Of a stretch of DNA of 51,296 bases, positions 1 through 47,768 are shown one piece after another; position 1 is the first letter of the stretch; every line of letters starts with the position of its first letter. A model generated the notes under the pieces. That model was not told the DNA's origin, did no database searches, and was given only the letters and a program-made list of their open reading frames with translations. The DNA is from Shigella phage SFP17. The stretch lies in the sequence record MN432485; one strand, 5' to 3'. The translations under genes were made by a program, and so were the position numbers.

Positions 1-387
1 ATGAAAGTTATCTGCAATAAAACCAACGTTTTGATGAACGGTCGTTATAAAGCTGTATACGAAAAAATTGCTGGTAGCGATGATGTGATCGAGTTGGAAC
101 AATTCCAGGTAAAGAGCATTACAAAGGGTAGCAAGTGGCAAAACGCTGTTGAATCTGACTATCGTCATATCAAGACAAAAACAATTAAATGCACCTTTGT
201 AGATCACAAGATCCCGTGTAAAAAGCATTTCAAAGAAGGAAAGCGCTACCAGATTGAGCAAGGCCGCGCGCTTGGTGCTGTTGCTGGTTATGTTTTTGAT
301 GAATCTGGCGACCGCTGGACGCTATACCGCGAAGAAGTGGGATTTTCAGCTGGTGGCTGTCATTTGTTTGAGGCCATGTATAAGTGA
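1..387 (+). CDS. hypothetical protein (128 aa)
   Basis: ATG at position 1; its RBS (AAAGGAGA) and motif promoter lie at the window end (51220-51290), so the genome representation is permuted; no recognisable motifs. Confidence 0.55.
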   Translation: MKVICNKTNVLMNGRYKAVYEKIAGSDDVIELEQFQVKSITKGSKWQNAVESDYRHIKTKTIKCTFVDHKIPCKKHFKEGKRYQIEQGRALGAVAGYVFDESGDRWTLYREEVGFSAGGCHLFEAMYK

Positions 388-605
388 TCAAGGCTGAATA
401 TCGCTATAAGGTGACTCATTCGGCAACAAAAACCTTTAAGCCTGGCGATATAGTCAGGCCAATAAAGAAAACGATGGTTGGGTGGCTGATTGGTCTTTCT
501 TACCACAAATCACTTTATTTTGATTTTGCTGATTCCGTAACCGCGCATTGCTATAGCGCAAGGGAACCAGAAAAAATCTTAGTTAGCATAGAGCGGATCA
601 AATAG
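384..605 (+). CDS. hypothetical protein (73 aa)
   Basis: GTG start overlapping upstream stop (GTGA); weak GAGG upstream; no ATG alternative near. Confidence 0.35.
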   Translation: MIKAEYRYKVTHSATKTFKPGDIVRPIKKTMVGWLIGLSYHKSLYFDFADSVTAHCYSAREPEKILVSIERIK

Positions 606-645: not shown

Positions 646-673
646 TGCCGCATCAAAAAAGGAGTTATCATCA

Positions 674-2257
674 ATGAATTTTTCGTTTGAAACCAATAAA
701 CTAACACCAAAACAAATTATCGAATTAGCTGATGCACAAGGATTGTCTCCGGTGCGCGTGTCCATTCAGGCAAACGGATACCGTCAATCGTCCAGCTTTT
801 GGGGTGAGGTTAATGATGTTAATAACGGAAACGATCGCTACCCTATAATTTCTCTTGGCAATGATGTTGATGTTGTTGGTAAGTTGGCGCGCAACATTGC
901 TCGATCAGTTCAGTTCCCTGAATCATCGGCATATATGCATTTTATCGGCTGCGTGTCTGCTGCAATGCTTGGACGCTTCACTGTTGAGTATCACGGAACG
1001 GATCAACCAACCGCTCTGTACGTTGTTACAAGCCAGCCTCCTTCAACTGGTAAATCTGCCGTTAACAGCCTGGCACTTGCTCCTATGGTTGCTGAAGTGG
1101 AAAGAATTAATGATCAGCGAAAGAAGGAGCGAAAAAAGATACAAGCTAAGCTGGCAGGTCTTGCAAAAGAGATGAAAAGCGAGCGCTCCGGCGCTGACAT
1201 GGAATCTCTGTACCAGGAGAAAGAAGATCTGGAAGAAAAACTGGAAAAGATGTGTGACATCGTTTTCCCTGTGTCCGACACAACGCCGGAAGGACTTGCA
1301 AGAATCAACAATCGCCAGGGTAACTTTGCTGTGATTTCAGACGAGGCAACAAGTATTAACAGCCTTTTAGGTCTGACATATGCCAATAGCGAACGTAAAA
1401 CCAACAGCGAACTTGTGCTAAAAGCATGGGATCATGGTCATGTTTCTATAGCTCGTGCAAACGCTGACAACAATATGAGTTTTAAAGCTCTTGGCTGTAT
1501 GGCGGTAATTGCCCAGGATGAAACAATCAATGCCATCATGGATGCAGGATCGCGCGGTATCGGTGTAAGTGAGCGTTATTTGCTTGTGCGTGAGGAATCA
1601 TTTTTAGGTCGTCGAAAGTTTGTTGATGATAACGGTGATTCTACTTATGAACCTGTTGATGGAGAACTGAAAAGCCAATATTTCAAGCTGATCCATAACA
1701 TCATGAGTGAATCGAACATCCAGCTTAAGATCAGCAAATCAGCAATGAGAGTTCTTAACATGGCTCGTCAGGAGATGGAACCGCACCTTGCCGATGGCGG
1801 AAAGTATTCGCATACAATGCTGCGCGGTGCGCTTGGCAAAATGGATAAGCAGGTGATCAGGATTGCTTCGGTTTTGCACACTATCCGCAATTGGTTTAAT
1901 CCTGGCGGATACCCTCAAAAGTCGAAAGAGATTGAGGTTGAAACCGTTCAGGAAGCACTGCTGATGTTTAGCGAGTTGAGCAAAACATACATTAGCGCCG
2001 CCAACGCTTCTGGCTATGCTGGTGATGATGCTGAAATGGGTAAACTAATCGAGATTATCACTCGACACGGTAAGGCTAACAAGGGAATCTTGAATGTGCG
2101 CGCCATATATGAGGCTGCACGAAAAGTTAAGCCGTTTGTTGGTCAGGCTGGCGTAATGAAGCGTATGGAAACGCAACTGCTGCCGATGCTTGAAGAAAGA
2201 AATTATATTTGTGTGATTAATGGCGTTGTTTTCGTAAATCCAACATTGCTGGGGTAA
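674..2257 (+). CDS. P-loop NTPase of unknown function (527 aa)
   Basis: RBS AAAGGAG 7 nt upstream; Walker A-like SQPPSTGKS and Walker B-like FAVISDEAT in translation; motif promoter at 601-645. Confidence 0.75.
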   Translation: MNFSFETNKLTPKQIIELADAQGLSPVRVSIQANGYRQSSSFWGEVNDVNNGNDRYPIISLGNDVDVVGKLARNIARSVQFPESSAYMHFIGCVSAAMLGRFTVEYHGTDQPTALYVVTSQPPSTGKSAVNSLALAPMVAEVERINDQRKKERKKIQAKLAGLAKEMKSERSGADMESLYQEKEDLEEKLEKMCDIVFPVSDTTPEGLARINNRQGNFAVISDEATSINSLLGLTYANSERKTNSELVLKAWDHGHVSIARANADNNMSFKALGCMAVIAQDETINAIMDAGSRGIGVSERYLLVREESFLGRRKFVDDNGDSTYEPVDGELKSQYFKLIHNIMSESNIQLKISKSAMRVLNMARQEMEPHLADGGKYSHTMLRGALGKMDKQVIRIASVLHTIRNWFNPGGYPQKSKEIEVETVQEALLMFSELSKTYISAANASGYAGDDAEMGKLIEIITRHGKANKGILNVRAIYEAARKVKPFVGQAGVMKRMETQLLPMLEERNYICVINGVVFVNPTLLG

Positions 2258-2259
2258 TT

Positions 2260-2652
2260 ATGTTTCTTCTGGATCTGTATCGCTGGTGTGAGTCATTCGA
2301 ATGGTTTACACGTCAACATATCGCAAAATTTATATTTCAGCATAGAGAATGTGAGCGGCTCGCAAGGGCCGCAGGATTTACGCCGAGAATGTTTGCAACC
2401 GCCGTTTCAAAAGAGTTTTGCGCAAGAATGATGACCGCTGGTTATCTTGATGGAGTTGGTGGAAAGTTCTGGTGTAAGAAAGGGTCTGCAAATCGACCTT
2501 TCTCGTTTGAACTTTACAGTCTGGAAGGTATGCAAAACGAATGGGTAATGGATGTTTTAAGGATCGGAGAAATGAGCGATGAAGAATTGTTTACGTCAAA
2601 TGCTAATAGACAAAATATTGAAGTTCTGCGCCGTAAGTTCAATCTCACATGA
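2260..2652 (+). CDS. hypothetical protein (130 aa)
   Basis: ATG 2 nt after upstream stop; long ORF in operon context. Confidence 0.55.
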   Translation: MFLLDLYRWCESFEWFTRQHIAKFIFQHRECERLARAAGFTPRMFATAVSKEFCARMMTAGYLDGVGGKFWCKKGSANRPFSFELYSLEGMQNEWVMDVLRIGEMSDEELFTSNANRQNIEVLRRKFNLT

Positions 2653-4035: not shown

Positions 4036-5151
4036 TCAATCAGCCATTTCTGGATAATGCATAAATCGCCCCACTTCTCCGTATTCTTTATCGTAAACAA
4101 TAACAGCTGCGCGGCGACGAGAACGCCATCCACCGCGCGCAGCATATGCATCTTTTGCCGCCATAGTGCTATGCACTTCAACAATGCCCAGGCTTGTTTC
4201 AGTTACTGTCTGATGATGCCAGTGCCCTACGTGAGCATACATCATTTTTGAATTTCCGAAGTCTTCGCGCCAGTCTGCCGCGCACATCATTAGTAATGTT
4301 TCAGGCTTGCGTATAGTGTGCCCGTGATGATATGCCAGGAATGTTTTGCCATACTGTGTGTGATGAACTACTCGCGGAGAAACATCAACATGCACTCGCG
4401 GCTCATTCTCATATGCTGCCGCCATTGCTGCGCGCAACCAGATCATGCCGCTTTGGTCGTGGTTTCCTTCAATAATCTGAATCTCGACGTTTTTGTGTTT
4501 TGATAACAGCTTTGTGATTGCTCGACGCACTGACCGGATGGCAACATAAACAAGTTTTGCGTATCGACTATCTTGATCTAATACGTGACCGCTTGCAGGT
4601 GTCACCGCTTCCAGTCCGTCGCTGTGAAGCATATCACCACCAATCAGCAAAACAGCTTTTTCACTATCCGGCGCGCACTGGATGGAATAATCAATGAAAT
4701 TATTCATTACGCGCTCTGCTGTTGCTGTATCCCAATTCTCGCCGCATTCATGCTTATGCGCCATTGCGCCCAAGTGCATGTCAAAGATCGGATACAGTGA
4801 TAACGTCTCGCTATAATCCTTTTGTGATTCTGGCTGTGGATCAAGTCGAGGAACTTCTTCGCTAAATGCATCCATAGCGGCCTGCATTAATGCTTCTAAC
4901 TGTTCGCGGTCCTTACTTGTCTTAATCCATGTCATAACCACATTGCCATCTTTATCAATTAGCTTTGATTCTCCAGTAACACCAAAACCAGGTGATCCGA
5001 TGGTTGTAACTTTACCTTGCTTTGCTAATCGTGCCGCGCGTCGCTCAATGCTGCGAACGTTCATACCATACTCATTAGCGATCTGCTTATATGTCTTTCC
5101 CTGCTTGCGCTCATTGATAAATTGTTCATCTGTGATTTTGATTTGCTTCAT
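4036..5151 (-). CDS. calcineurin-like metallophosphoesterase with N-terminal HTH domain (371 aa)
   Basis: HTH-like TYKQIANEYGMNVRSIERRAARLAKQG; phosphoesterase motifs GDMLHSD, GNHD, GHWHH; RBS AAGGAGA; ATG at 5151 (track start 5154 is TTG). Confidence 0.8.
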   Translation of the reverse strand: MKQIKITDEQFINERKQGKTYKQIANEYGMNVRSIERRAARLAKQGKVTTIGSPGFGVTGESKLIDKDGNVVMTWIKTSKDREQLEALMQAAMDAFSEEVPRLDPQPESQKDYSETLSLYPIFDMHLGAMAHKHECGENWDTATAERVMNNFIDYSIQCAPDSEKAVLLIGGDMLHSDGLEAVTPASGHVLDQDSRYAKLVYVAIRSVRRAITKLLSKHKNVEIQIIEGNHDQSGMIWLRAAMAAAYENEPRVHVDVSPRVVHHTQYGKTFLAYHHGHTIRKPETLLMMCAADWREDFGNSKMMYAHVGHWHHQTVTETSLGIVEVHSTMAAKDAYAARGGWRSRRRAAVIVYDKEYGEVGRFMHYPEMAD

Positions 5152-5249
5152 CAAAAATTCTCCTTATCTCATTATAACAACGTATACAATAGAGATCGCC
5201 ATCATAACAGGTAAGGGCAAAAGTAACAAACGCCACATGATAATAATCC

Positions 5250-5977: not shown

Positions 5978-6679
5978 TTAACTCCGCTTTCTTGCCCGAC
6001 GCTCTGCCACTGACGGGCAAATGTCGCTGATTTTAACGTATCGAGTTTTCTGCTGCTCACCTTCTTTCAGTTCGCGCATGATGAAAATAACGCTGCCTTT
6101 GTTGTTTCCCTGCACTGGTTTACCTGTTAGCGCGGAAGTAAACGCCAGGCGTCCGGTGCGGGAATATTCTGTTCCATCCTCCTGGTAAACTTCGCCAGTG
6201 ATCCAGATTATTTCCGCTGCGCGCTGCTGCGCTTCATAAAACCATCCTGTTGATGTGTCGCAAGGTAACAGAATGTCGATCTGGTTGTTGTGCTCCATTT
6301 GCTCAATCGCCTTCTTAACAAATGGCGTAATATTGCTATACGGTGGATTAAGCCATATATGCTTATTACTACCCCACCAACGCTTTAAGCAATTTGTTTC
6401 CTTGCTGTAGAATTTTTCACATACAGCATTTTCTTTGCTTGCCGCCGCGTCGATGTCATAATCACCGTATTCGCTCTCCATCCATTCGACAAGCTCAGAC
6501 GGCGTAGACCACAAATCGCGCACAACGTCCGGCGTATTGCTTCCGTTATAGCGGTTGCCAGTCACTTTGAAATATTGATTTGGTTTAACAGCCTGGTAAT
6601 GACCACCAGTAGCAAGAGCATTGCCAATGAATGTTTCGCGTTCTATTTGTTCAAATGTCACTTCGGTTTCTTTGCTCAT
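5978..6679 (-). CDS. dam: DNA N6-adenine methyltransferase (Dam-like)
   Basis: NPPY catalytic motif (WLNPPYSN) in translation; RBS AGGT; motif promoter immediately upstream. Confidence 0.85.
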   Translation of the reverse strand: MSKETEVTFEQIERETFIGNALATGGHYQAVKPNQYFKVTGNRYNGSNTPDVVRDLWSTPSELVEWMESEYGDYDIDAAASKENAVCEKFYSKETNCLKRWWGSNKHIWLNPPYSNITPFVKKAIEQMEHNNQIDILLPCDTSTGWFYEAQQRAAEIIWITGEVYQEDGTEYSRTGRLAFTSALTGKPVQGNNKGSVIFIMRELKEGEQQKTRYVKISDICPSVAERRARKRS

Positions 6680-6713
6680 TTCTTAATTACCTGTTGCTTG
6701 TTGAACTGGTGTT

Positions 6714-6759
6714 ATTATGGCGCAATCCTTCGCGCCTGTTTTAACAAAAAGTGCTATTT
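6714..6759 (-). promoter_or_regulatory. conserved-motif promoter upstream of dam
   Basis: AAATAGCACTTTTTGTTAAAAC + 22 nt (GGCGCgaaggattGCGCC) + CATAAT. Confidence 0.5.
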
Positions 6760-7173
6760 CATCATGTATTCTACCGCGATCATGAATTGCTTATATCCGT
6801 ATGTTACGGCAGCGAATCCGCCAAGCTCACGCACACGGCGCAAGAAGTCTTTTTGCTCCTTGCTGACTGGTGAAGCCTTACCCTTGCCAGACTTATTGAC
6901 GCGTTTCATCTCAATAGCCGCGAATGGGTAACGGCCTTTTAATCCAATCAGGATGATAAAATCACTTACGCCCTTAACGAGTCCAGCTTGCTGATCCATC
7001 ATTGCGGTAGCGATACCCTTTTCTCCCTCATTTTTCGTATGCCAGGCAAGAAATTCAGGATGAGCATAAGTTAACCATTGAAACGCCCCAATCTGGTGTG
7101 ATTCCTCTTTTAGCGTATCCGTCGGATCTCTTTCGTAAAACTCCAGATAATCGCCTTTATCAGTCATTGCCAT
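6754..7173 (-). CDS. VRR-NUC-like PD-(D/E)xK nuclease (139 aa)
   Basis: GVSDFIILIG...AAIEMK pattern matches VRR-NUC core; ATG at 7173 with GAAGGA RBS, overlapping helicase stop. Confidence 0.65.
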   Translation of the reverse strand: MAMTDKGDYLEFYERDPTDTLKEESHQIGAFQWLTYAHPEFLAWHTKNEGEKGIATAMMDQQAGLVKGVSDFIILIGLKGRYPFAAIEMKRVNKSGKGKASPVSKEQKDFLRRVRELGGFAAVTYGYKQFMIAVEYMMK

Positions 7174-9229
7174 AATTAAAGTCCTTCTTGTACAAATTAT
7201 CTTCACCCTTGCTAGTCTTGCGGTGAGTCACACGCGATGGCGGCATAATGTGATTCACATATTGCATTATTTTTCGTGCATTACGATAGCTCGCCACCAT
7301 GCCAGCAACGCGGCGATCTGGTATGTGCTTAAGAGCAACGCTTCGCCATTTTGCGCGGCAAATTTGGCTCTCAGATTCAGGGAAAAATATCTCTCTCGCC
7401 CTGAAAGTGTCCATGCCATCGGAAAGCTCATAATTAAATATTATCCCTTTCTGGTTTTTCGTCATGTCAACCGAGAAAGATTGCACCTTGAACCAGTCGT
7501 TTTTTGTGTAGTGCTTTCCGCTCAACTTCTCGTTAGGGTCGATCAATGACATGTCGCAATGTCTGCACACCCTGGCCGCAATATCATTTTTCGTTCCACA
7601 ACCGCGATGAATAATCTTTTTAGTGCGCGGGTCAATCTGATCATCGCATGTCCTGAATTTAAAGAACCACTCGCATCTGTTGCCGTTTTCGTCTACGTTC
7701 ATACAACGACGAGCATAATAGCTATTAAGAGTTCCGCAAATAGGGCAAGGTTTCGGATCTTTACCATTTCTGAATCGCTTCTGATGCTGCGCCTGTTCAA
7801 GTATCGGATCAAAATAAAGCTCACCTAACTCATCCATAGTTCCTGAAAAATCCATTACTAGGTGATCATCTTTCTTGAATCCTTGCTCCTTATGCCACTT
7901 CTTAAGCAGTCGCATTCCGCGTCCTAAAAGCTGAATCAACAAAGTTAGCGATCCAATCTTGCGCAGAATAACAGACGTATCCCAAAACGGCACGTTAACG
8001 CCAGTTGTTAGCGCCTGCACCTGGAAGATGTATTTAACCTTCCCCTCGTATGCTTCCCTCAGCCACTCCTTGCGCTGATTGTCGCCAGTCTTACCAGTAA
8101 TGATCCTGTAAGTAGTCCCATGTGGCAACGCTGCCGCTGCCTCTTTGCAATGCCTTTCTCCTGCACATGTCACAAGTACGCCATTGCGGTTTTTACAGAT
8201 CTCGTGAACTTTTGCCATGATGCGCTTTGTCATGGTCGCTTCTTCATGAATTTTTTGTTCCATCCTACGAAGCGTTTTAGCGTCAAAGTCTGCAACGCCA
8301 TCCTCGCTGGATGCCTCAAACTCTGAAAGGTCATACCCTAGATCGCCAACGTCGCCAAAATTTGTTGGCACAACAGAACCGAATTTAATCAGGTAGTTGG
8401 TGTCAATATTAGTAACCTGTTCACGCCAGAATCCTTTTTGTTTTTTGTCTTCTACCAGGATCGGGACTACGCCGCGAAACTCCGATCCAGTCATGCCAAA
8501 TATGCGCAGTTCATGGCCATATGCTTTCCTGCAACGTCGCATCATTTCCATGATAATGACAGTGTATTGTGTGCGGCCTGTTCCCTCCATTGGCAAGCCA
8601 TCCTCACCAATCAGGAACTCTGTATTTCTGTTCCTGCTTCCCTTTGTTATGTCATAATCTGGATTTGGTACTTTTTCGCCTTTCTTAGTTGTCATTTGTA
8701 AAAATGACTCGTCTTTCTCTATTGCGTCGGCAAGGTCTTCCCAATCCACCTGGTGACACTCGTCAATCCCGATAACGTGCGGAACATAGTCGCCAAGCGC
8801 TTTAAACAGTCCATTAACTACAGTTCCCTCAGAACCAACAACGATCGGAAAGTATGCGCTTTTTGTCTTCAGTCCTGCACAATAGATGGAGTTCGGCACA
8901 CCAAGATTTGTTATCTCTTCAGAATCCTGATCCACAATCTCAGCCTGGCGAGCAAGGACCATCATTTTCAAGCCCATTTTCCGGCACTGGTGAGCAACCA
9001 TTGCAAACATCAATGTTTTGCCAGCCGATACGGACGCTTTAACAAAGAATGGATGCTCATAATTTTTCATACGCTTTGCGATCTCAGCGTATGCAACGCA
9101 CTGGTAAGGGTAAGGCACAATTTCGCCAACAGTGAATCGCTCCTGAATGGATTTAATTACCGCTTCACCAAGTGCTGATATTTGCTTTTCAATGTTTGGA
9201 ATCATTCTAAAACCTTTGAGTAATGCCAT
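7160..9229 (-). CDS. SF2 ATP-dependent DNA helicase with C-terminal zinc ribbon
   Basis: Walker A SVSAGKT, DECH box (GIDECHQV), paired C-terminal CxxC motifs; start ambiguous (ATG 9229 nearly leaderless, or ATG 9205 with AAGG RBS). Confidence 0.85.
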   Translation of the reverse strand: MALLKGFRMIPNIEKQISALGEAVIKSIQERFTVGEIVPYPYQCVAYAEIAKRMKNYEHPFFVKASVSAGKTLMFAMVAHQCRKMGLKMMVLARQAEIVDQDSEEITNLGVPNSIYCAGLKTKSAYFPIVVGSEGTVVNGLFKALGDYVPHVIGIDECHQVDWEDLADAIEKDESFLQMTTKKGEKVPNPDYDITKGSRNRNTEFLIGEDGLPMEGTGRTQYTVIIMEMMRRCRKAYGHELRIFGMTGSEFRGVVPILVEDKKQKGFWREQVTNIDTNYLIKFGSVVPTNFGDVGDLGYDLSEFEASSEDGVADFDAKTLRRMEQKIHEEATMTKRIMAKVHEICKNRNGVLVTCAGERHCKEAAAALPHGTTYRIITGKTGDNQRKEWLREAYEGKVKYIFQVQALTTGVNVPFWDTSVILRKIGSLTLLIQLLGRGMRLLKKWHKEQGFKKDDHLVMDFSGTMDELGELYFDPILEQAQHQKRFRNGKDPKPCPICGTLNSYYARRCMNVDENGNRCEWFFKFRTCDDQIDPRTKKIIHRGCGTKNDIAARVCRHCDMSLIDPNEKLSGKHYTKNDWFKVQSFSVDMTKNQKGIIFNYELSDGMDTFRAREIFFPESESQICRAKWRSVALKHIPDRRVAGMVASYRNARKIMQYVNHIMPPSRVTHRKTSKGEDNLYKKDFNYGND

Positions 9230-9243
9230 TTGGCGTGTATAAT
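9216..9243 (+). promoter_or_regulatory. sigma70-like promoter for regulator/primase operon
   Basis: TTGAGT - 16 nt - TATAAT within palindrome GTGTATAATACAC; divergent from helicase promoter. Confidence 0.4.
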
Positions 9244-9282
9244 ACACAATCATTAAATCATCGTTTAACAAAAAATGCTATT
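9239..9282 (-). promoter_or_regulatory. conserved-motif promoter upstream of helicase
   Basis: AATAGCATTTTTTGTTAAACG + 21 nt + TATTAT; predicted start site almost coincides with ATG 9229. Confidence 0.45.
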
Positions 9283-9294
9283 GGAGAATGAATA

Positions 9295-9768
9295 ATGAAA
9301 GAACAGCGAATCGCAGTATCAACTGGTAAGATTGACAAACGCACAATCAATGGCAATAACGGAACTCGACGGGGTAAAGATAAGAAAAAGCGCAAGCGCC
9401 CTACAGGATACTATGTTTTAAAAGATGAAGTGCGCGCCGGACTAAAAGCACGGCTTGACATTCTTATTGAGTATTACGGCAGCGTGTCAGCAATGGCAAA
9501 GCGTCTTAACGTTAGCCAGCAAACTGTAAATCAGTGGCGCGTTCGCGGTATGATTTCAGCCGCTGGCGCTCAAAAGGTGCATAACGATTACAAAAAGTAT
9601 GGCTGTCAAGGCTATCGCGCTTCATTCTGCCGTCCAGATCTGCGATTTGATTCCAATGGAAAACCGCTCACAAAGAGATGTGATAAGCGTGAAATGTTGC
9701 GAGTGGTAAGAATGTCAGATTATGAGCCTGGCGGATTCCTGTATAAACCTGAAAGCACTAATTGCTAA
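9295..9768 (+). CDS. HTH DNA-binding protein (157 aa), putative replication/transcription regulator
   Basis: RBS GGAGA; HTH-like AMAKRLNVSQQTVNQWRVRG; basic N-terminus; directly upstream of primase. Confidence 0.65.
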   Translation: MKEQRIAVSTGKIDKRTINGNNGTRRGKDKKKRKRPTGYYVLKDEVRAGLKARLDILIEYYGSVSAMAKRLNVSQQTVNQWRVRGMISAAGAQKVHNDYKKYGCQGYRASFCRPDLRFDSNGKPLTKRCDKREMLRVVRMSDYEPGGFLYKPESTNC

Positions 9769-9775
9769 AAACAAT

Positions 9776-9813
9776 GCCTGGCATGATGTTATCATCTGTC
9801 AGGCTTTTTTGTT
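9776..9813 (+). terminator. hairpin + T-run (attenuator-like) between regulator and primase
   Basis: GCCTG...CAGGC stem with long loop followed by TTTTTTGTTT. Confidence 0.35.
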
Positions 9814-9823
9814 TGAGGTGCAT

Positions 9824-10756
9824 ATGAACAACGAAAACTTTATGGTTTATCAAAAGGAAGATGTTCTCCCATATATGCAAGGATTGTGGCGTGAGGCGCT
9901 ACAAAGTATTTGCGGTCTTCCAAATGAAGTTTTTAACGGCAAGCATCAATCTTGCCCCCACTGCGGCGGAAAGGATCGCTTCAGATGGACGGATAAACTT
10001 GGCGATAAAAAAGGCGATGGCGGTGCGATCTGCAACGTGTGCGGTAATGATACCGGAATTGGTTGGATCATGAAGCTAACCGGAGAACCTTACAGCGAAG
10101 TGATCAATATTTTGGGCCGCTTTCTTGGAAAAGTTCCGCAGGACTATAGAATCAAGGCAAATAAGCGAGTATCTCGTGATTCTGGTTATTCGTTTGGGAA
10201 ACAGGCAAGCCATGAATGCTGCGAGCGCGTTATGTCAAAAACACTAAAATTTGATCGCACGCCGTTAAGCACATATGAAGGAATATACCCGCCTGAAGAT
10301 GGTCATTATGATTGCGGCGTTAAAGATGGTCGATACATTCACGCGCTCCCATGTTACCTGGTACATTCAGATGAAATTGATGATGAAATGTGCAATGTGC
10401 TTTTCATTGATGAAGAAGGTAATAAGTCTTTTCTCGCAAAGGACTACACGCGCGGGTCGATTGTGAGAACAGGAAGCACAGATAAGACGATCTATCTTTG
10501 CGTTGACTGGATTGATGCGCAACACATCCATCTTGCAACTGGTCAAGAGGTTTGGGCCTGTTTTGATGCAACTAACATTGAGATTGTGGCTTACAGGTAT
10601 AAAGGCAACAGAAGAATGCGAGTTGTCTGTAAGAGCACAGATCGTGACGCTATCATTGCCGCAGAGGAAAGAGGTCTTGAAATTATGATGCCGATTAATG
10701 ATAATTACAGGCAAGGGATAGAGAAGAAGGTTTACAAACCTGAATCTCTTCTCTAA
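9824..10756 (+). CDS. DNA primase (zinc-binding plus TOPRIM-like)
   Basis: Zinc motif [14 protein letters not shown]...CNVCG; acidic DxD-like core; RBS GAGGTG; ATG at 9824 (track start 9722 is non-ATG and crosses a hairpin). Confidence 0.75.
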
Positions 10757-15488: not shown

Positions 15489-16145
15489 TCATTCAAAATC
15501 AGTGATACTTTGCGATTTTACTTGCTCGTCGTTTTTTGTGTCAACTTCTGGCGATGCAAGATTTTGTTTTGGTTGCGCTGGATTAAATCCTCGTGCTTTG
15601 CCGATCTCAAGCTCTGCCTTGCGCTTCTCGTAATGCTCTTTAATTACCTGCTTGCTTGCCGGATCGCTTGCCTTCCATGCTGATTTAAGCACTTCTTGCA
15701 ATTCGTTTACGCTTTCGCATTTCTCAATGTCACGCTTCCAGTCGTTTGCAGATTTAACGGCAATCTGTGCGTCATCGTCTGCCTGGCTTAAGCCAAATGC
15801 AGCTGCTGCTGCATAACGACGAGCGTATGTGAATGCGGATCCGACACCTTGAGGATCGTTTTTAACGATTGGTAGCTCTGCGTAAAATTTCACCCACTGA
15901 CCGGAAACATGAAGAACTGTTGTCTCAACCTTGATTCTGTTTGGTTGTTCGCTTTCAATCATGTCCTGCATCAACATTAGCTCGTTATCATTCAATGCTG
16001 GAGTGATTGCATCAAGTACGGCATCAAGCGTTGCGTAACGGTTTTTGAGGTGCGTGTTTTGCTTATCTTTCTTCACCTTTACAAACAAACTACGCGCCTT
16101 ATGCAGTGCTGGTAAAACCTTGTCGAATTGCTCTGATAGTTTCAT
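15489..16145 (-). CDS. erf: Erf-family single-strand annealing protein
   Basis: [24 protein letters not shown] resembles the conserved core of P22 Erf as recalled; sits between exonuclease and SSB. Confidence 0.8.
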
Positions 16146-16550: not shown

Positions 16551-17612
16551 TTAAATAAGATATTGCTTAAACTGGCGTCGCACCCAATCAGGAGTATCAA
16601 GGCAAACCTCCGGCTCACCGTTTGAATACGAAGGCCAAACGTCATGTTGCTGGCACATGGCAAACTGGTTAATTACGCTCATGTACTGAATGCGCCCGAT
16701 CTTCAATTGCTCGCTATTCATGCGGAAAGCCAACGGCAAATAAGGCTCTTTATTCTCTTGCGCTAACAGTCGAACAACTATAGGTCGCTTTTCTTCTGGA
16801 TACGCTTTTCTGAATAAATCACATTGCAACGCCATTTTCAAATAATAGCCGTGATTGTAAGCCAGGCGCATAAACTCAACCGGATTCGCGCTCATTGTGG
16901 TTTTGTAGTCTGTGATCACAATGGCCTCTGGATAAATAATATCGCGGCAAATCGGATGACCTTTTTCATCGTAACCATCAATCAGCGTTGCGGTGACGTT
17001 CTTTGTTACGTCAACGTGATCGCATCGCACTTTGACTTTTACGCCGTTGATTTCACCGAACAACGATAATTCACGTTGTGCTGTCTTGCTATTCATACAT
17101 GCGTTATGTTCCGGTATTGATTCCAGAACCTGGCGCATTGCAACGCACGCATCGTAATCTTTAGATTCGATTAGCTGTACGCCGTCAGCCCTGGCCTGGC
17201 TTTCTGCGATCATCTCAATCAACCACATAACGTTAAGGTCTTCTCCGCAATCCACCATCATTTTGATAAGGTCTGGATAAGTCTTTCCTGTTGTACCTTT
17301 CAGGCCAAATGATTTCAGCTTTGCAGCAAGTGCCGTTTGGCTAGTTATCAGATCCTTAAAGTCTTCTGGCGCTGGCGCGCGTCGATAGGTTTTTTCGAAA
17401 AGCTCCTTGCTTTCAAAGTTGGTATGCGACTGCGTACCGAAAACTAGCGCCTTGCTCTTATCGTCACGCGGCTTGAACTTCCACGCTGCCGGGCATGTGC
17501 TGTAAATCTCTGCCAGGCTTGAACCGCTAACATAATCAGCCGTCCACGCTTCTGGATCGTGATAAAGCTCATTGCTCATTTCTTCGCTGGTGTACGCCAT
17601 AAACTTATTCAT
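16551..17612 (-). CDS. PD-(D/E)xK recombination exonuclease (353 aa)
   Basis: ITDYKTT catalytic-core motif; RBS GAGGG; first gene of the exo-erf-ssb module. Confidence 0.8.
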   Translation of the reverse strand: MNKFMAYTSEEMSNELYHDPEAWTADYVSGSSLAEIYSTCPAAWKFKPRDDKSKALVFGTQSHTNFESKELFEKTYRRAPAPEDFKDLITSQTALAAKLKSFGLKGTTGKTYPDLIKMMVDCGEDLNVMWLIEMIAESQARADGVQLIESKDYDACVAMRQVLESIPEHNACMNSKTAQRELSLFGEINGVKVKVRCDHVDVTKNVTATLIDGYDEKGHPICRDIIYPEAIVITDYKTTMSANPVEFMRLAYNHGYYLKMALQCDLFRKAYPEEKRPIVVRLLAQENKEPYLPLAFRMNSEQLKIGRIQYMSVINQFAMCQQHDVWPSYSNGEPEVCLDTPDWVRRQFKQYLI

Positions 17613-46443: not shown

Positions 46444-46698
46444 AATATCTGTTGTGACTTGTTGGTGTATTACGTTTTTGCCGTTGCGGTATGTGCTATC
46501 CGTTGCGCCTTTGCAATTTGTGTAATAGATCGCGCGACCGTTATCATAGAATCTGTATGCTGTGCATCCGTCAACAGTGAACAGGCGACCGACTTTGAAA
46601 TCTGACTCCACGCCTACGACAACCGTTGATTCTGACGCCTTTTCGCATCCGGTCAGCGTAGCGATTGCAATCAAAAGTCCAATTAATGCCTTATTCAT
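46438..46698 (-). CDS. lipoprotein (86 aa)
   Basis: Signal peptide with lipobox LTGC; RBS AGGTGGGGG. Confidence 0.6.
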   Translation of the reverse strand: MNKALIGLLIAIATLTGCEKASESTVVVGVESDFKVGRLFTVDGCTAYRFYDNGRAIYYTNCKGATDSTYRNGKNVIHQQVTTDIK

Positions 46699-47267
46699 TA
46701 TTCATCCCCCACCTTTACCATCTCGTTGAGCATTTCATTCATTCGCTCAAGTGCGATTGCCGCACCCTCCAGGCGCTCACCTTCCAGATCACTGATTCGC
46801 GGCTGTGTTTTCAGTAGTTGAGCAACAAACTTTGCTCGCCACTTGATTTCAAGTTTCGCTATATCATCTCCAGTCAGAACGCGAGGCTTGCTTTTGGCTT
46901 CAGTGAGCGTAAACACAAAGCCATCACCCTCATCAGTCACCTTTCGCTTAATGCTGATCACGCCTTTTTGCTTTACTTCTGGCACACGGTTGACCACCTG
47001 GCGCATGTACGATGCTGTAATTGCGTCGCCGTTCTCCACGTTAGCGCACAAGAAAAGTGCTGGCATGAATACATTATTACGCTCACCACTACCAATTGCC
47101 GCGCCCAGGTCGCGAAGCATATCGCAGAACTCACTACGCGACATGGTGCTAATATTTTCTTCATTCATGGCGTCTACTCCTTTTGTTGCGTTTAAACTGG
47201 ATGCATTATTGCCTTGCCCTTCCCACGTGTCAATGTATTCTTGTGTTTTAATAACAATTTTTGGCAT
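46698..47267 (-). CDS. hypothetical early protein (189 aa)
   Basis: First minus-strand gene after the 47.3-47.9 kb non-coding region; clean ORF. Confidence 0.6.
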   Translation of the reverse strand: MPKIVIKTQEYIDTWEGQGNNASSLNATKGVDAMNEENISTMSRSEFCDMLRDLGAAIGSGERNNVFMPALFLCANVENGDAITASYMRQVVNRVPEVKQKGVISIKRKVTDEGDGFVFTLTEAKSKPRVLTGDDIAKLEIKWRAKFVAQLLKTQPRISDLEGERLEGAAIALERMNEMLNEMVKVGDE

Positions 47268-47375
47268 GTGGCGCGTTTAAAGATAACAAAATGCTTCAGT
47301 TAAGTCATTGGTTTTTCTGTTAAAAGTGACCTTGTTGACTTGGTTGACGGAGGATTGCCCCATACCCATATATAT

Positions 47376-47545
47376 ACATATAAAAATCACCACACATCAC
47401 CATTGATTAAAAAATATACAATCACACATACATATCACCACAAACAATACCACTCCACCATATACCCATAGAACAAGCTCAACAGTAAATAACAAATATA
47501 AATACATATATAACTAACTTATTGATTTTATGGGTATATATATAA
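47376..47545. repeat. iteron/AT-rich repeat block, copy B
   Basis: TAAAAATCACC plus 4-5 ATCAC(C/A) iterons, then AACAAATATAAATACATATATAACTAACTTATTGATTTT; direct orientation relative to copy A; plus strand almost G-free over ~125 bp. Confidence 0.6.
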
Positions 47546-47768
47546 ATTTTACTTTGTTCTTTTTGTTGATGAACGCCGATTCTGTTATCTAAAAGTGCGG
47601 AGGCTTATTTGAGATAACATGGGGAACAGAAATAACAGATGCGCGCGCCAGGATTGCTGGAAAGGATGCAAGAGGGCCGTGTTTCTCTATCCCCTCCACA
47701 CAAAAAGTTAATCACTTGATTAAAATTGACCAAACTCAAAGTCTCACAATCCAGGTGATCGCGAATGA

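Follow-up and report, generated by a model that had tools for sequence, protein, structure and literature searches.

The gene at positions 674 to 2257 (stop codon included, + strand) of the sequence analysed here is probably the replicative DNA helicase of a T1-like phage (Drexlerviridae, Hanrivervirus), and its product of 527 amino acids belongs to the DUF3987 family as a stand-alone protein. The window, meaning the whole stretch of 51,296 nucleotides from Shigella phage SFP17 (record MN432485), is a Hanrivervirus genome (Drexlerviridae, Tempevirinae). The gene is listed as one for a DUF3987-family AAA+ helicase (SF6, MCM-like) on the basis of the ORF list, Pfam, PHROG and nucleotide identity, and its reading as a replicative helicase is drawn from the family match, the fold, the catalytic residues, the links to primases, the genome context and the literature.

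What had been seen as an "unknown ATPase" is re-read in this way as the probable replicative helicase of the phage. This also clarifies which of the two genes annotated as "DNA helicase" in T1-like phages is likely to encode the helicase of the replication fork. These phages are common contaminants in laboratories and fermentation, candidates for phage therapy, and test phages for defence systems, and because they are so widely met and used, knowing the parts of their replisome is useful for interpreting escape mutants. The finding itself is already known: publications cover the family, its predicted role and, for one member, the activity as a helicase, and the gene is already called "DNA helicase" in RefSeq. 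That many phages use MCM-like rather than DnaB-like motors was pointed out in 2016, and proof at the biochemical level followed for the family in 2025. Since both the classification and the biochemistry precede it, this locus adds no new principle.

The gene and its surroundings

The reading frame from 674 to 2257 (+) is without interruption in the ORF list and encodes 527 amino acids, as originally predicted. It is also, as had been stated, the second-longest non-structural ORF, with only the 703 amino acid ORF of an SF2 helicase (7160..9271) being longer in the window. A Shine-Dalgarno sequence, AGGAG, can be read at 660..664 (+), 9 nt before the ATG at 674. The TAA of the helicase gene (2255-2257) is followed 2 nt further on by the ATG of a 130 amino acid ORF (2260..2652, +) that belongs to PHROG 2794. 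The same position of this small ORF is kept in the phages SECphi27 and slyngel, and its product may be a co-translated partner of the helicase. A promoter scan found no convincing site directly 5' of the helicase gene, and in the promoter and terminator scans promoter-like sites were rarer than in shuffled controls.

The original prediction also made the protein the chief product of a transcription unit that comes first after the permutation point, and this part of it has to be given up. The block of co-directional genes on the + strand starts at about 47.7 kb and continues across the window end to 2652, and the window itself opens with the ATG of an internal gene (128 amino acids). In slyngel, a relative with a RefSeq record, about ten more genes on the same strand precede the equivalents of the window ORFs 1..387 and 384..605. 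The slyngel helicase is gp55, at 39.5-41 kb in a record whose first position is close to the terminase genes. The apparent first transcription unit is an artefact of a window that starts arbitrarily inside a block of genes.

A phage primase gene with a primase-helicase-type zinc ribbon (Pfam Zn_Ribbon_Prim, E=2e-12) is found at 9722..10756 (+, longest ORF). Its counterpart in slyngel is annotated as DNA primase, and the primase is the presumed functional partner of the DUF3987 helicase. The two genes are about 7.5 kb apart, with a lysis cassette and the genes for a phosphoesterase, Dam, a VRR-NUC nuclease (6754..7206) and the SF2 helicase lying between them. Other genes in the window encode an HTH protein (9295..9768), Erf (15489..16145) and a RecE-like protein (16551..17612). 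Genes for primase, SSB and recombination are present both in the window and in slyngel, and no DNA polymerase gene was found in the window or among the 80 annotated features of slyngel. Phages T1 and TLS are likewise without a DNA polymerase (PMC11447400).

Family assignment and distribution

The original prediction had correctly identified a P-loop NTPase with a Walker A motif (QPPSTGKS, aa 121-128) and a Walker B motif (AVISDE, aa 219-224), but found nothing else recognisable in the protein and left its role as unknown. Comparison with family models overturns the second statement. The Pfam model DUF3987 (PF13148) matches with E=1.8e-43 and 149.6 bits, where the cut-off is 27, and aligns aa 82-431 with model positions 3-350 of 364. 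The whole protein also matches PHROG 2373, which bears the name "DNA helicase" (E=4.2e-245). Genes annotated as "DNA helicase" in Hanrivervirus and other T1-like phages of the Drexlerviridae are 97-100% identical, and the nucleotide identity is 97-98% to genes called "putative helicase" or "DNA helicase" in JLBYU09, slyngel, JakobBernoulli, aalborv, egaa and herni. Near-identical genes annotated as DNA helicase exist in about 170 phages. The orthologue in a related Pantoea phage has already been called a putative DUF3987 helicase (PMC8004638), while the re-annotation of TLS treats only the SF2 protein as "the helicase" (PMC11447400).

A tblastn search found a homolog in 920 phage records, nearly all of them from T1-like phages of enterobacteria, so that the gene behaves as a core gene of this phage family. 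When 1.84 billion cluster representatives were searched with a profile, 5,828 relatives had E<=1e-3, 380 of them with E<=1e-30. Judged by its conservation in these 920 records and 5,828 cluster representatives, the ORF is far beyond what chance would produce.

Kazlauskas, Krupovic and Venclovas (2016; PMC4889955) classified phage DUF3987 proteins as divergent SF6 replicative helicases that are distantly related to MCM. In their analysis the DUF3987 protein of phage Corndog matched MCM with an HHsearch probability of 98%. They also described a C-terminal wHTH in the family and an association with primases of the AEP or DnaG type, and noted that the family member dns of phage N4 is essential for replication (PMC4889955). 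It is almost certain that the protein studied here belongs to this DUF3987, MCM-like AAA+ lineage. A Pfam scan gave no match to MCM (PF00493), MCM_N or MCM_OB at E<=1. The protein would work as an MCM-type motor, yet lies outside the MCM family proper. Among the roles suggested originally, it is that of a replication-associated ATPase that is supported, with the protein falling essentially within a known replication ATPase family.

Two other helicase superfamilies were considered. Assignment to SF4 (DnaB-like) was rejected because the RecA-fold DnaB_C domain was not found, and assignment to SF3 (D5-like) was also rejected.

Predicted structure

Sequence searches against PDB chains, both with the single sequence and with a profile of 22 sequences, returned only coiled coils or short chance segments with best E values of 0.13-0.3, and for this reason the fold had to be compared instead. 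Structure prediction had been proposed as a check in the original prediction. An AlphaFold2 model built on an alignment of 22 sequences (36-87% identical to the query) was confident, with a mean pLDDT of 85.7 and a pTM of 0.84, and has an MCM-like AAA+ fold. When this model was searched against the PDB with Foldseek, MCM subunits ranked first, and in the structural comparison MCM scored 15.7 versus 9.1 for ComM. The protein is thus predicted to have an alpha-beta-alpha AAA+ core with a helical lid that is structurally nearest to MCM.

According to the model, the protein starts with a mostly helical domain (aa 1-100; 674..973, +), which differs from the OB/Zn type of N-terminal domain found in MCM. 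Most of it is kept in a distant relative of 869 amino acids (P0151), where the profile match starts from position 11 and the BLASTP alignment from aa 63. In the core, strand beta1 (aa 116-120) lies ahead of the P-loop. Between the P-loop and strand beta2, the model places a long, charged, antiparallel helical hairpin (1046..1249, +), which consists of a first helix of 44 residues (aa 125-168) and a return helix (aa 173-192). A helix at 205-215 is followed by strand beta3 at 218-222, which carries Walker B; no hairpin is visible in this helix, so that a helix-2 insert is not seen in the model. Strand beta4 (274-280), a helix (282-293) and strand beta5 (302-306) complete the modelled core. The alpha-helical lid domain covers aa 330-406 (1661..1891, +), and a C-terminal domain with helices and a winged helix covers aa 422-527 (1937..2254, +).

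It is worth mentioning that the charged hairpin attracts accidental similarities. Searches of NCBIfam and PADLOC gave only chance matches, all to this hairpin, and matches to coiled coils of WWC1, augmin and JetC in the same segment were judged spurious.

Conserved residues

Two MAFFT alignments, with 141 and 135 diverse relatives (22-38% identity to the query), were used to assess conservation. Just six positions never vary in the 141 relatives: K127, E224, R261, G297, R301 and K389. Q281 is kept in all but one (140/141), and T204, E206, E307, Q121 and P122 are conserved in more than 96% of them. The Walker A motif or P-loop, Q121-PPSTGK127-S128, is encoded at 1034..1057 (+) and includes the invariant lysine K127 (141/141). 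Strand beta3 and Walker B, F218-AVIS-D223-E224, are encoded at 1325..1345 (+), with E224 invariant in 141/141. The spacing between Walker A and Walker B is about 94-97 residues, and lies between 90 and 99 in 179 of the 187 relatives that were scored. This long and nearly constant distance is explained by the helical hairpin that sits between the two motifs.

Several further residues can be tentatively placed in the AAA+ scheme with the help of the model. A candidate for the pre-sensor-1 beta-hairpin is aa 256-271 (1439..1486, +), with model strands at 256-258 and 269-271. The invariant R261 (141/141) would be located at its flexible tip, where the pLDDT is low (260-265), and is a candidate for the DNA contact of this hairpin. 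Q281, at the C-terminal end of beta4 (1514..1516, +; 140/141), is the candidate for sensor 1. The sequence S299-E300-R301 before beta5 (1568..1576, +) contains R301 as the arginine-finger candidate (141/141), preceded by G297 (141/141). In the model, R301 holds the classical arginine-finger position just before strand 302-306, and the local sequence S-E-R-[Y/F]-L is one that we take to resemble the "SRFD" motif of MCM. Sensor 2 candidates are found in the lid helices 381-406, namely K389 (141/141) and R384 (102/141). The spacings from R261 to Q281, from Q281 to R301 and from R301 to K389 are 20, 20 and 88 residues, respectively. These are presumably close to the spacings of 18, 25 and 87 between K430, N448, R473 and R560 of the Sulfolobus MCM, a likeness to be read as a lead only.

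The aspartate of Walker B is a special case. Of the 141 relatives, 56 have Asp at position 223, 50 have Ala and 27 have Ser, and such variation is unusual for an AAA+ ATPase that is active. This variability, the absence of the N-terminal OB/Zn domain of MCM and the helix-2 insert that is not seen in the model all count against a replicative helicase.

The primase link in relatives

Many distant relatives are considerably larger, with 760-970 amino acids, and carry the homologous region at their C-terminus. As an example, P0151 has a DnaG-type CHC2 zinc finger and a DUF6371 domain, followed by a 35% identical copy of aa 63-525. Two others carry PriCT-2 (P0236) and the DnaB N-terminal domain (P0186). 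A Pfam scan for extra domains in 34 long relatives found Prim-Pol (3), a BT4734-like AEP (3), Zn_ribbon_DnaG (2), the DnaB N-terminal domain (2), PriCT-2 (2), a RepB primase (1) and the NrS-1 polymerase HBD (1). The sole other match in these 34 proteins was a marginal one to a phage scaffold (E=0.003). Foldseek searches against predicted viral structures likewise led to DUF3987 proteins and to fusions with primases or polymerases. A survey of AEPs from 2018 lists DUF3987 among the ATPase domains that replace MCM, RepA or DnaB in primase fusions (PMC5862659).

Stand-alone relatives show the same association at the level of gene order. In two loci, L002 and L003, a DUF3987 gene whose product is 36-38% identical to the query directly abuts a primase gene. 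The order in L003 is a YdaS-like HTH gene, a zinc-ribbon primase gene and, with a 4-nt overlap, the DUF3987 gene, and this block is divergent from the genes for an SF2 helicase, a RecE-like nuclease, Erf and SSB. L002 has the DUF3987 gene first, followed by genes for a primase with a DnaG zinc finger, an SF2 helicase and a RecE-like nuclease. This module recurs in the window with its genes for the SF2 helicase, VRR-NUC nuclease, HTH protein, primase, Erf and RecE-like protein. A primase that is fused to the DUF3987 protein or adjacent to it is absent from the window genome, but this feature is a typical association rather than a strict criterion for the family. The DUF3987 gene seems to have become separated from the primase gene by a rearrangement that is derived in T1-like phages.

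The neighbours of the primase gene in the window are the genes for the SF2 helicase and the VRR-NUC nuclease, and the DUF3987 gene lies elsewhere. This arrangement counts against the replicative role, as does the naming of the SF2 protein as "the" helicase in at least one paper on a T1-like phage.

Proposed function and alternatives

As a replicative helicase, the protein would assemble into a probably hexameric ring. K127 and E224 would bind the ATP, whose hydrolysis would be assisted in trans by R301 of the adjacent subunit, and the pre-sensor-1 hairpin with R261 would line the central channel and pull single-stranded DNA through it. The ring would unwind the phage DNA in front of the host's DNA polymerase III, which is proposed as the partner because the phage is without a polymerase of its own. 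Primers would be made by the zinc-ribbon primase of the phage, and its SSB would coat the strands. By analogy with AgaPH, a characterised family member from a mobile element, the polarity is probably 5'->3', which would put the helicase on the lagging strand, as with DnaB. Contacts with DNA, including the origin, or with the primase may be made by the winged helix and by the helical domain at the N-terminus. In the literature, no biochemical or genetic test of any DUF3987 protein from a T1-like phage was found, and nothing usable was found on T1 amber mutants, dnaB dependence or essential-gene screens in Drexlerviridae.

A first alternative is that the protein is primarily a replication initiator or self-loading helicase, in which the winged helix or the N-terminal domain recognises and melts the origin before the ring loads itself. 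The models for this are SaPI Rep, P4 alpha and SCCmec Cch. It would refine the replicative-helicase reading and is compatible with it, and is possible, although the odds are against it. The winged helix is present in the model and no loader was recognised, both of which fit an initiator. A winged helix is, on the other hand, general among MCM-like helicases, including those that depend on a loader. A tandem-repeat search found no iteron-like origin, and indeed no iterons or tandem repeats, within or beside the helicase gene, and T1-like phages have no known origin (PMC11447400).

A more speculative extension, and a rather unlikely one as a whole, is that T1-like phages use a hybrid replisome in which the zinc-ribbon primase, of bacterial type, and Pol III of the host work with an MCM-type AAA+ ring in place of a RecA-fold DnaB, and in which the 65-residue hairpin, specific to the family and constant in length, is the functional adaptor. 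The hairpin could then be a docking arm for the primase or the clamp loader, or a ring-opening device for self-loading. Such an adaptor might let an MCM-like motor run 5'->3' in a bacterial fork.

It is clearly unlikely that the protein is instead a motor for recombination, branch migration or fork restart, similar to ComM or RuvB from the same AAA+ neighbourhood, that takes part in recombination-dependent replication with Erf and RecE, while host DnaB or the SF2 helicase of the phage drives the forks. MCM outscores ComM in the structural comparison given above, and the domains fused to relatives are primases or the DnaB N-terminal domain, but never a recombinase. The adjacency to primase genes in both L002 and L003 argues against this role as well, and the SF2 helicase with the VRR-NUC nuclease would appear to be the more typical module for processing branches.

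The suggestion of a host-takeover or anti-defence ATPase, also made in the original prediction, is very improbable: the gene does sit in a block of small genes lacking an assigned function, which is circumstantial, and window ORF 1..387 in the same block appears orthologous to a trigger of the type I Mokosh defence, but PADLOC gave no significant match (the best, with E=0.005, is to a JetC coiled-coil stretch at aa 140-199), the conservation at high identity in 920 phage records is unlike that of typical accessory anti-defence genes, and the catalytic AAA+ helicase motifs together with fused domains in the relatives that are all replication-related, primases among them, indicate replication. 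A Nature paper on Avs from 2026 mentions Drexlerviridae and helicases, but the sensor of helicases in it, Avs20, is directed at those with a RecA fold rather than at the DUF3987 family.

Comparison with known systems

In comparison with the MCM proteins of archaea and eukaryotes, the replicative helicase proposed here lacks the N-terminal OB/zinc domain, and the helix-2 insert is not seen in its model. It has an additional helical hairpin of 65 residues after the P-loop helix, which is absent from MCM. MCM translocates 3'->5', whereas the characterised DUF3987 member, AgaPH, moves 5'->3'. The primase-MCM fusion BcMCM from a Bacillus cereus prophage, and SCCmec Cch and SaPI Rep, belong to other Pfam families (MCM, DUF927). 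Their structural matches to the protein are much weaker than those of MCM proper, and their N-terminal domains differ.

N4 dns and the SF6 helicase of Corndog are phage DUF3987 proteins that have likewise been proposed as replicative helicases. Going by its description, N4 dns has a C-terminal AEP primase domain, whereas the protein in the window stands alone.

AgaPH, a PriCT-DUF3987 protein from a mobile element of Seonamhaeicola, is the sole member of the family shown to be a 5'->3' helicase. It is oligomeric, its activity depends on ATP or dATP and on Walker A and Walker B, and it binds its primase-polymerase (2025; PMC11724360). Both proteins share the DUF3987 domain, but by its description AgaPH starts with PriCT, whereas the protein in the window has a helical N-terminus of about 100 amino acids. 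The partner of AgaPH is an AEP primase-polymerase that is encoded immediately upstream; in contrast, the presumed partner in the phage is a zinc-ribbon primase of the DnaG/T7 type, encoded 7.5 kb away.

Helicases and replication genes

In an alignment of 141 diverse DUF3987 relatives of the window helicase (674..2257, plus strand), the Walker B aspartate D223 (codon 1340..1342) turns out to be variable: the position is occupied by Asp in 56 of the 141 sequences, by Ala in 50 and by Ser in 27. The Glu directly after it is invariant in the same alignment, and E206, E300 and E307 are each more than 92% conserved. These three glutamates might replace the Walker B Asp in Mg2+ coordination.

The second helicase of the window is an SF2 'DNA helicase' with ResIII and Helicase_C domains (7160..9271, minus strand). 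Its gene overlaps that of a VRR-NUC nuclease (6754..7206, minus strand) and is oriented divergently to the HTH-primase pair. In the literature on T1-like phages, this SF2 protein is sometimes taken as the replication helicase. The same SF2 helicase is found alongside the DUF3987 gene and the primase in L002 and L003, two more distant relatives with a stand-alone DUF3987 protein, and the trio therefore looks like a conserved replication/recombination module. Another minus-strand gene is the 372-aa ORF at 4036..5154, whose counterparts in relatives carry the annotation 'DNA repair exonuclease / putative phosphoesterase'. A Pfam search returned no match for it at E<=0.001; on reading, its N-terminus is HTH-like and the C-terminal part contains metallophosphoesterase-like His/Asp motifs.

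The helicase gene block

Directly downstream of the DUF3987 helicase, starting 2 nt past its stop codon, lies a plus-strand ORF of 130 aa (2260..2652) that belongs to PHROG 2794 (unknown) and had no match in a Pfam search. Its position after the helicase is kept in the T1-like phage slyngel, where the annotation is shorter and named 'YdbL', and SECphi27 has a counterpart in the same position with 75% identity. At the position after the DUF3987 gene in L002 and L003, the ORF was not found. The ORF and the helicase may be partners whose translation is coupled.

The gene block that includes the helicase begins on the plus strand beyond a divergent intergenic region (47280..47716), on the other side of which is the minus-strand ORF 46698..47267. 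The gene blocks on both sides may be controlled from this region, which contains a short, AT-rich tandem repeat of 12 nt (47486..47518). The region's top sigma-70-like site (47233-47205, matching at 11 of 12 positions) is just within ORF 46698..47267.

Relatives in the databases

Five GenBank records labelled as Campylobacter jejuni phages, A16a (MG065636), A134 (MG065663), A131 (MG065665), A127 (MG065667) and A15a (MG065638), contain T1-like genes with 97–100% identity to the window, and the helicase protein of A16a is 100% identical. These 'Campylobacter phage' records appear to come from enterobacterial Drexlerviridae, either mis-assigned or present as contamination.

According to Stokar-Avihail et al., the Mokosh type I defence system is triggered by a "128aa protein of unknown function" of SECphi27. 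The second gene upstream of the window helicase is a plus-strand ORF of 128 aa (1..387; PHROG 2684, unknown function). It is 75% identical to ORF 6629..7015 of SECphi27 (LT961732), a phage in which no other ORF with an ATG start is exactly 128 aa long, and gene order is shared; the window protein is therefore, judging from sequence, probably the orthologue of the Mokosh type I trigger.
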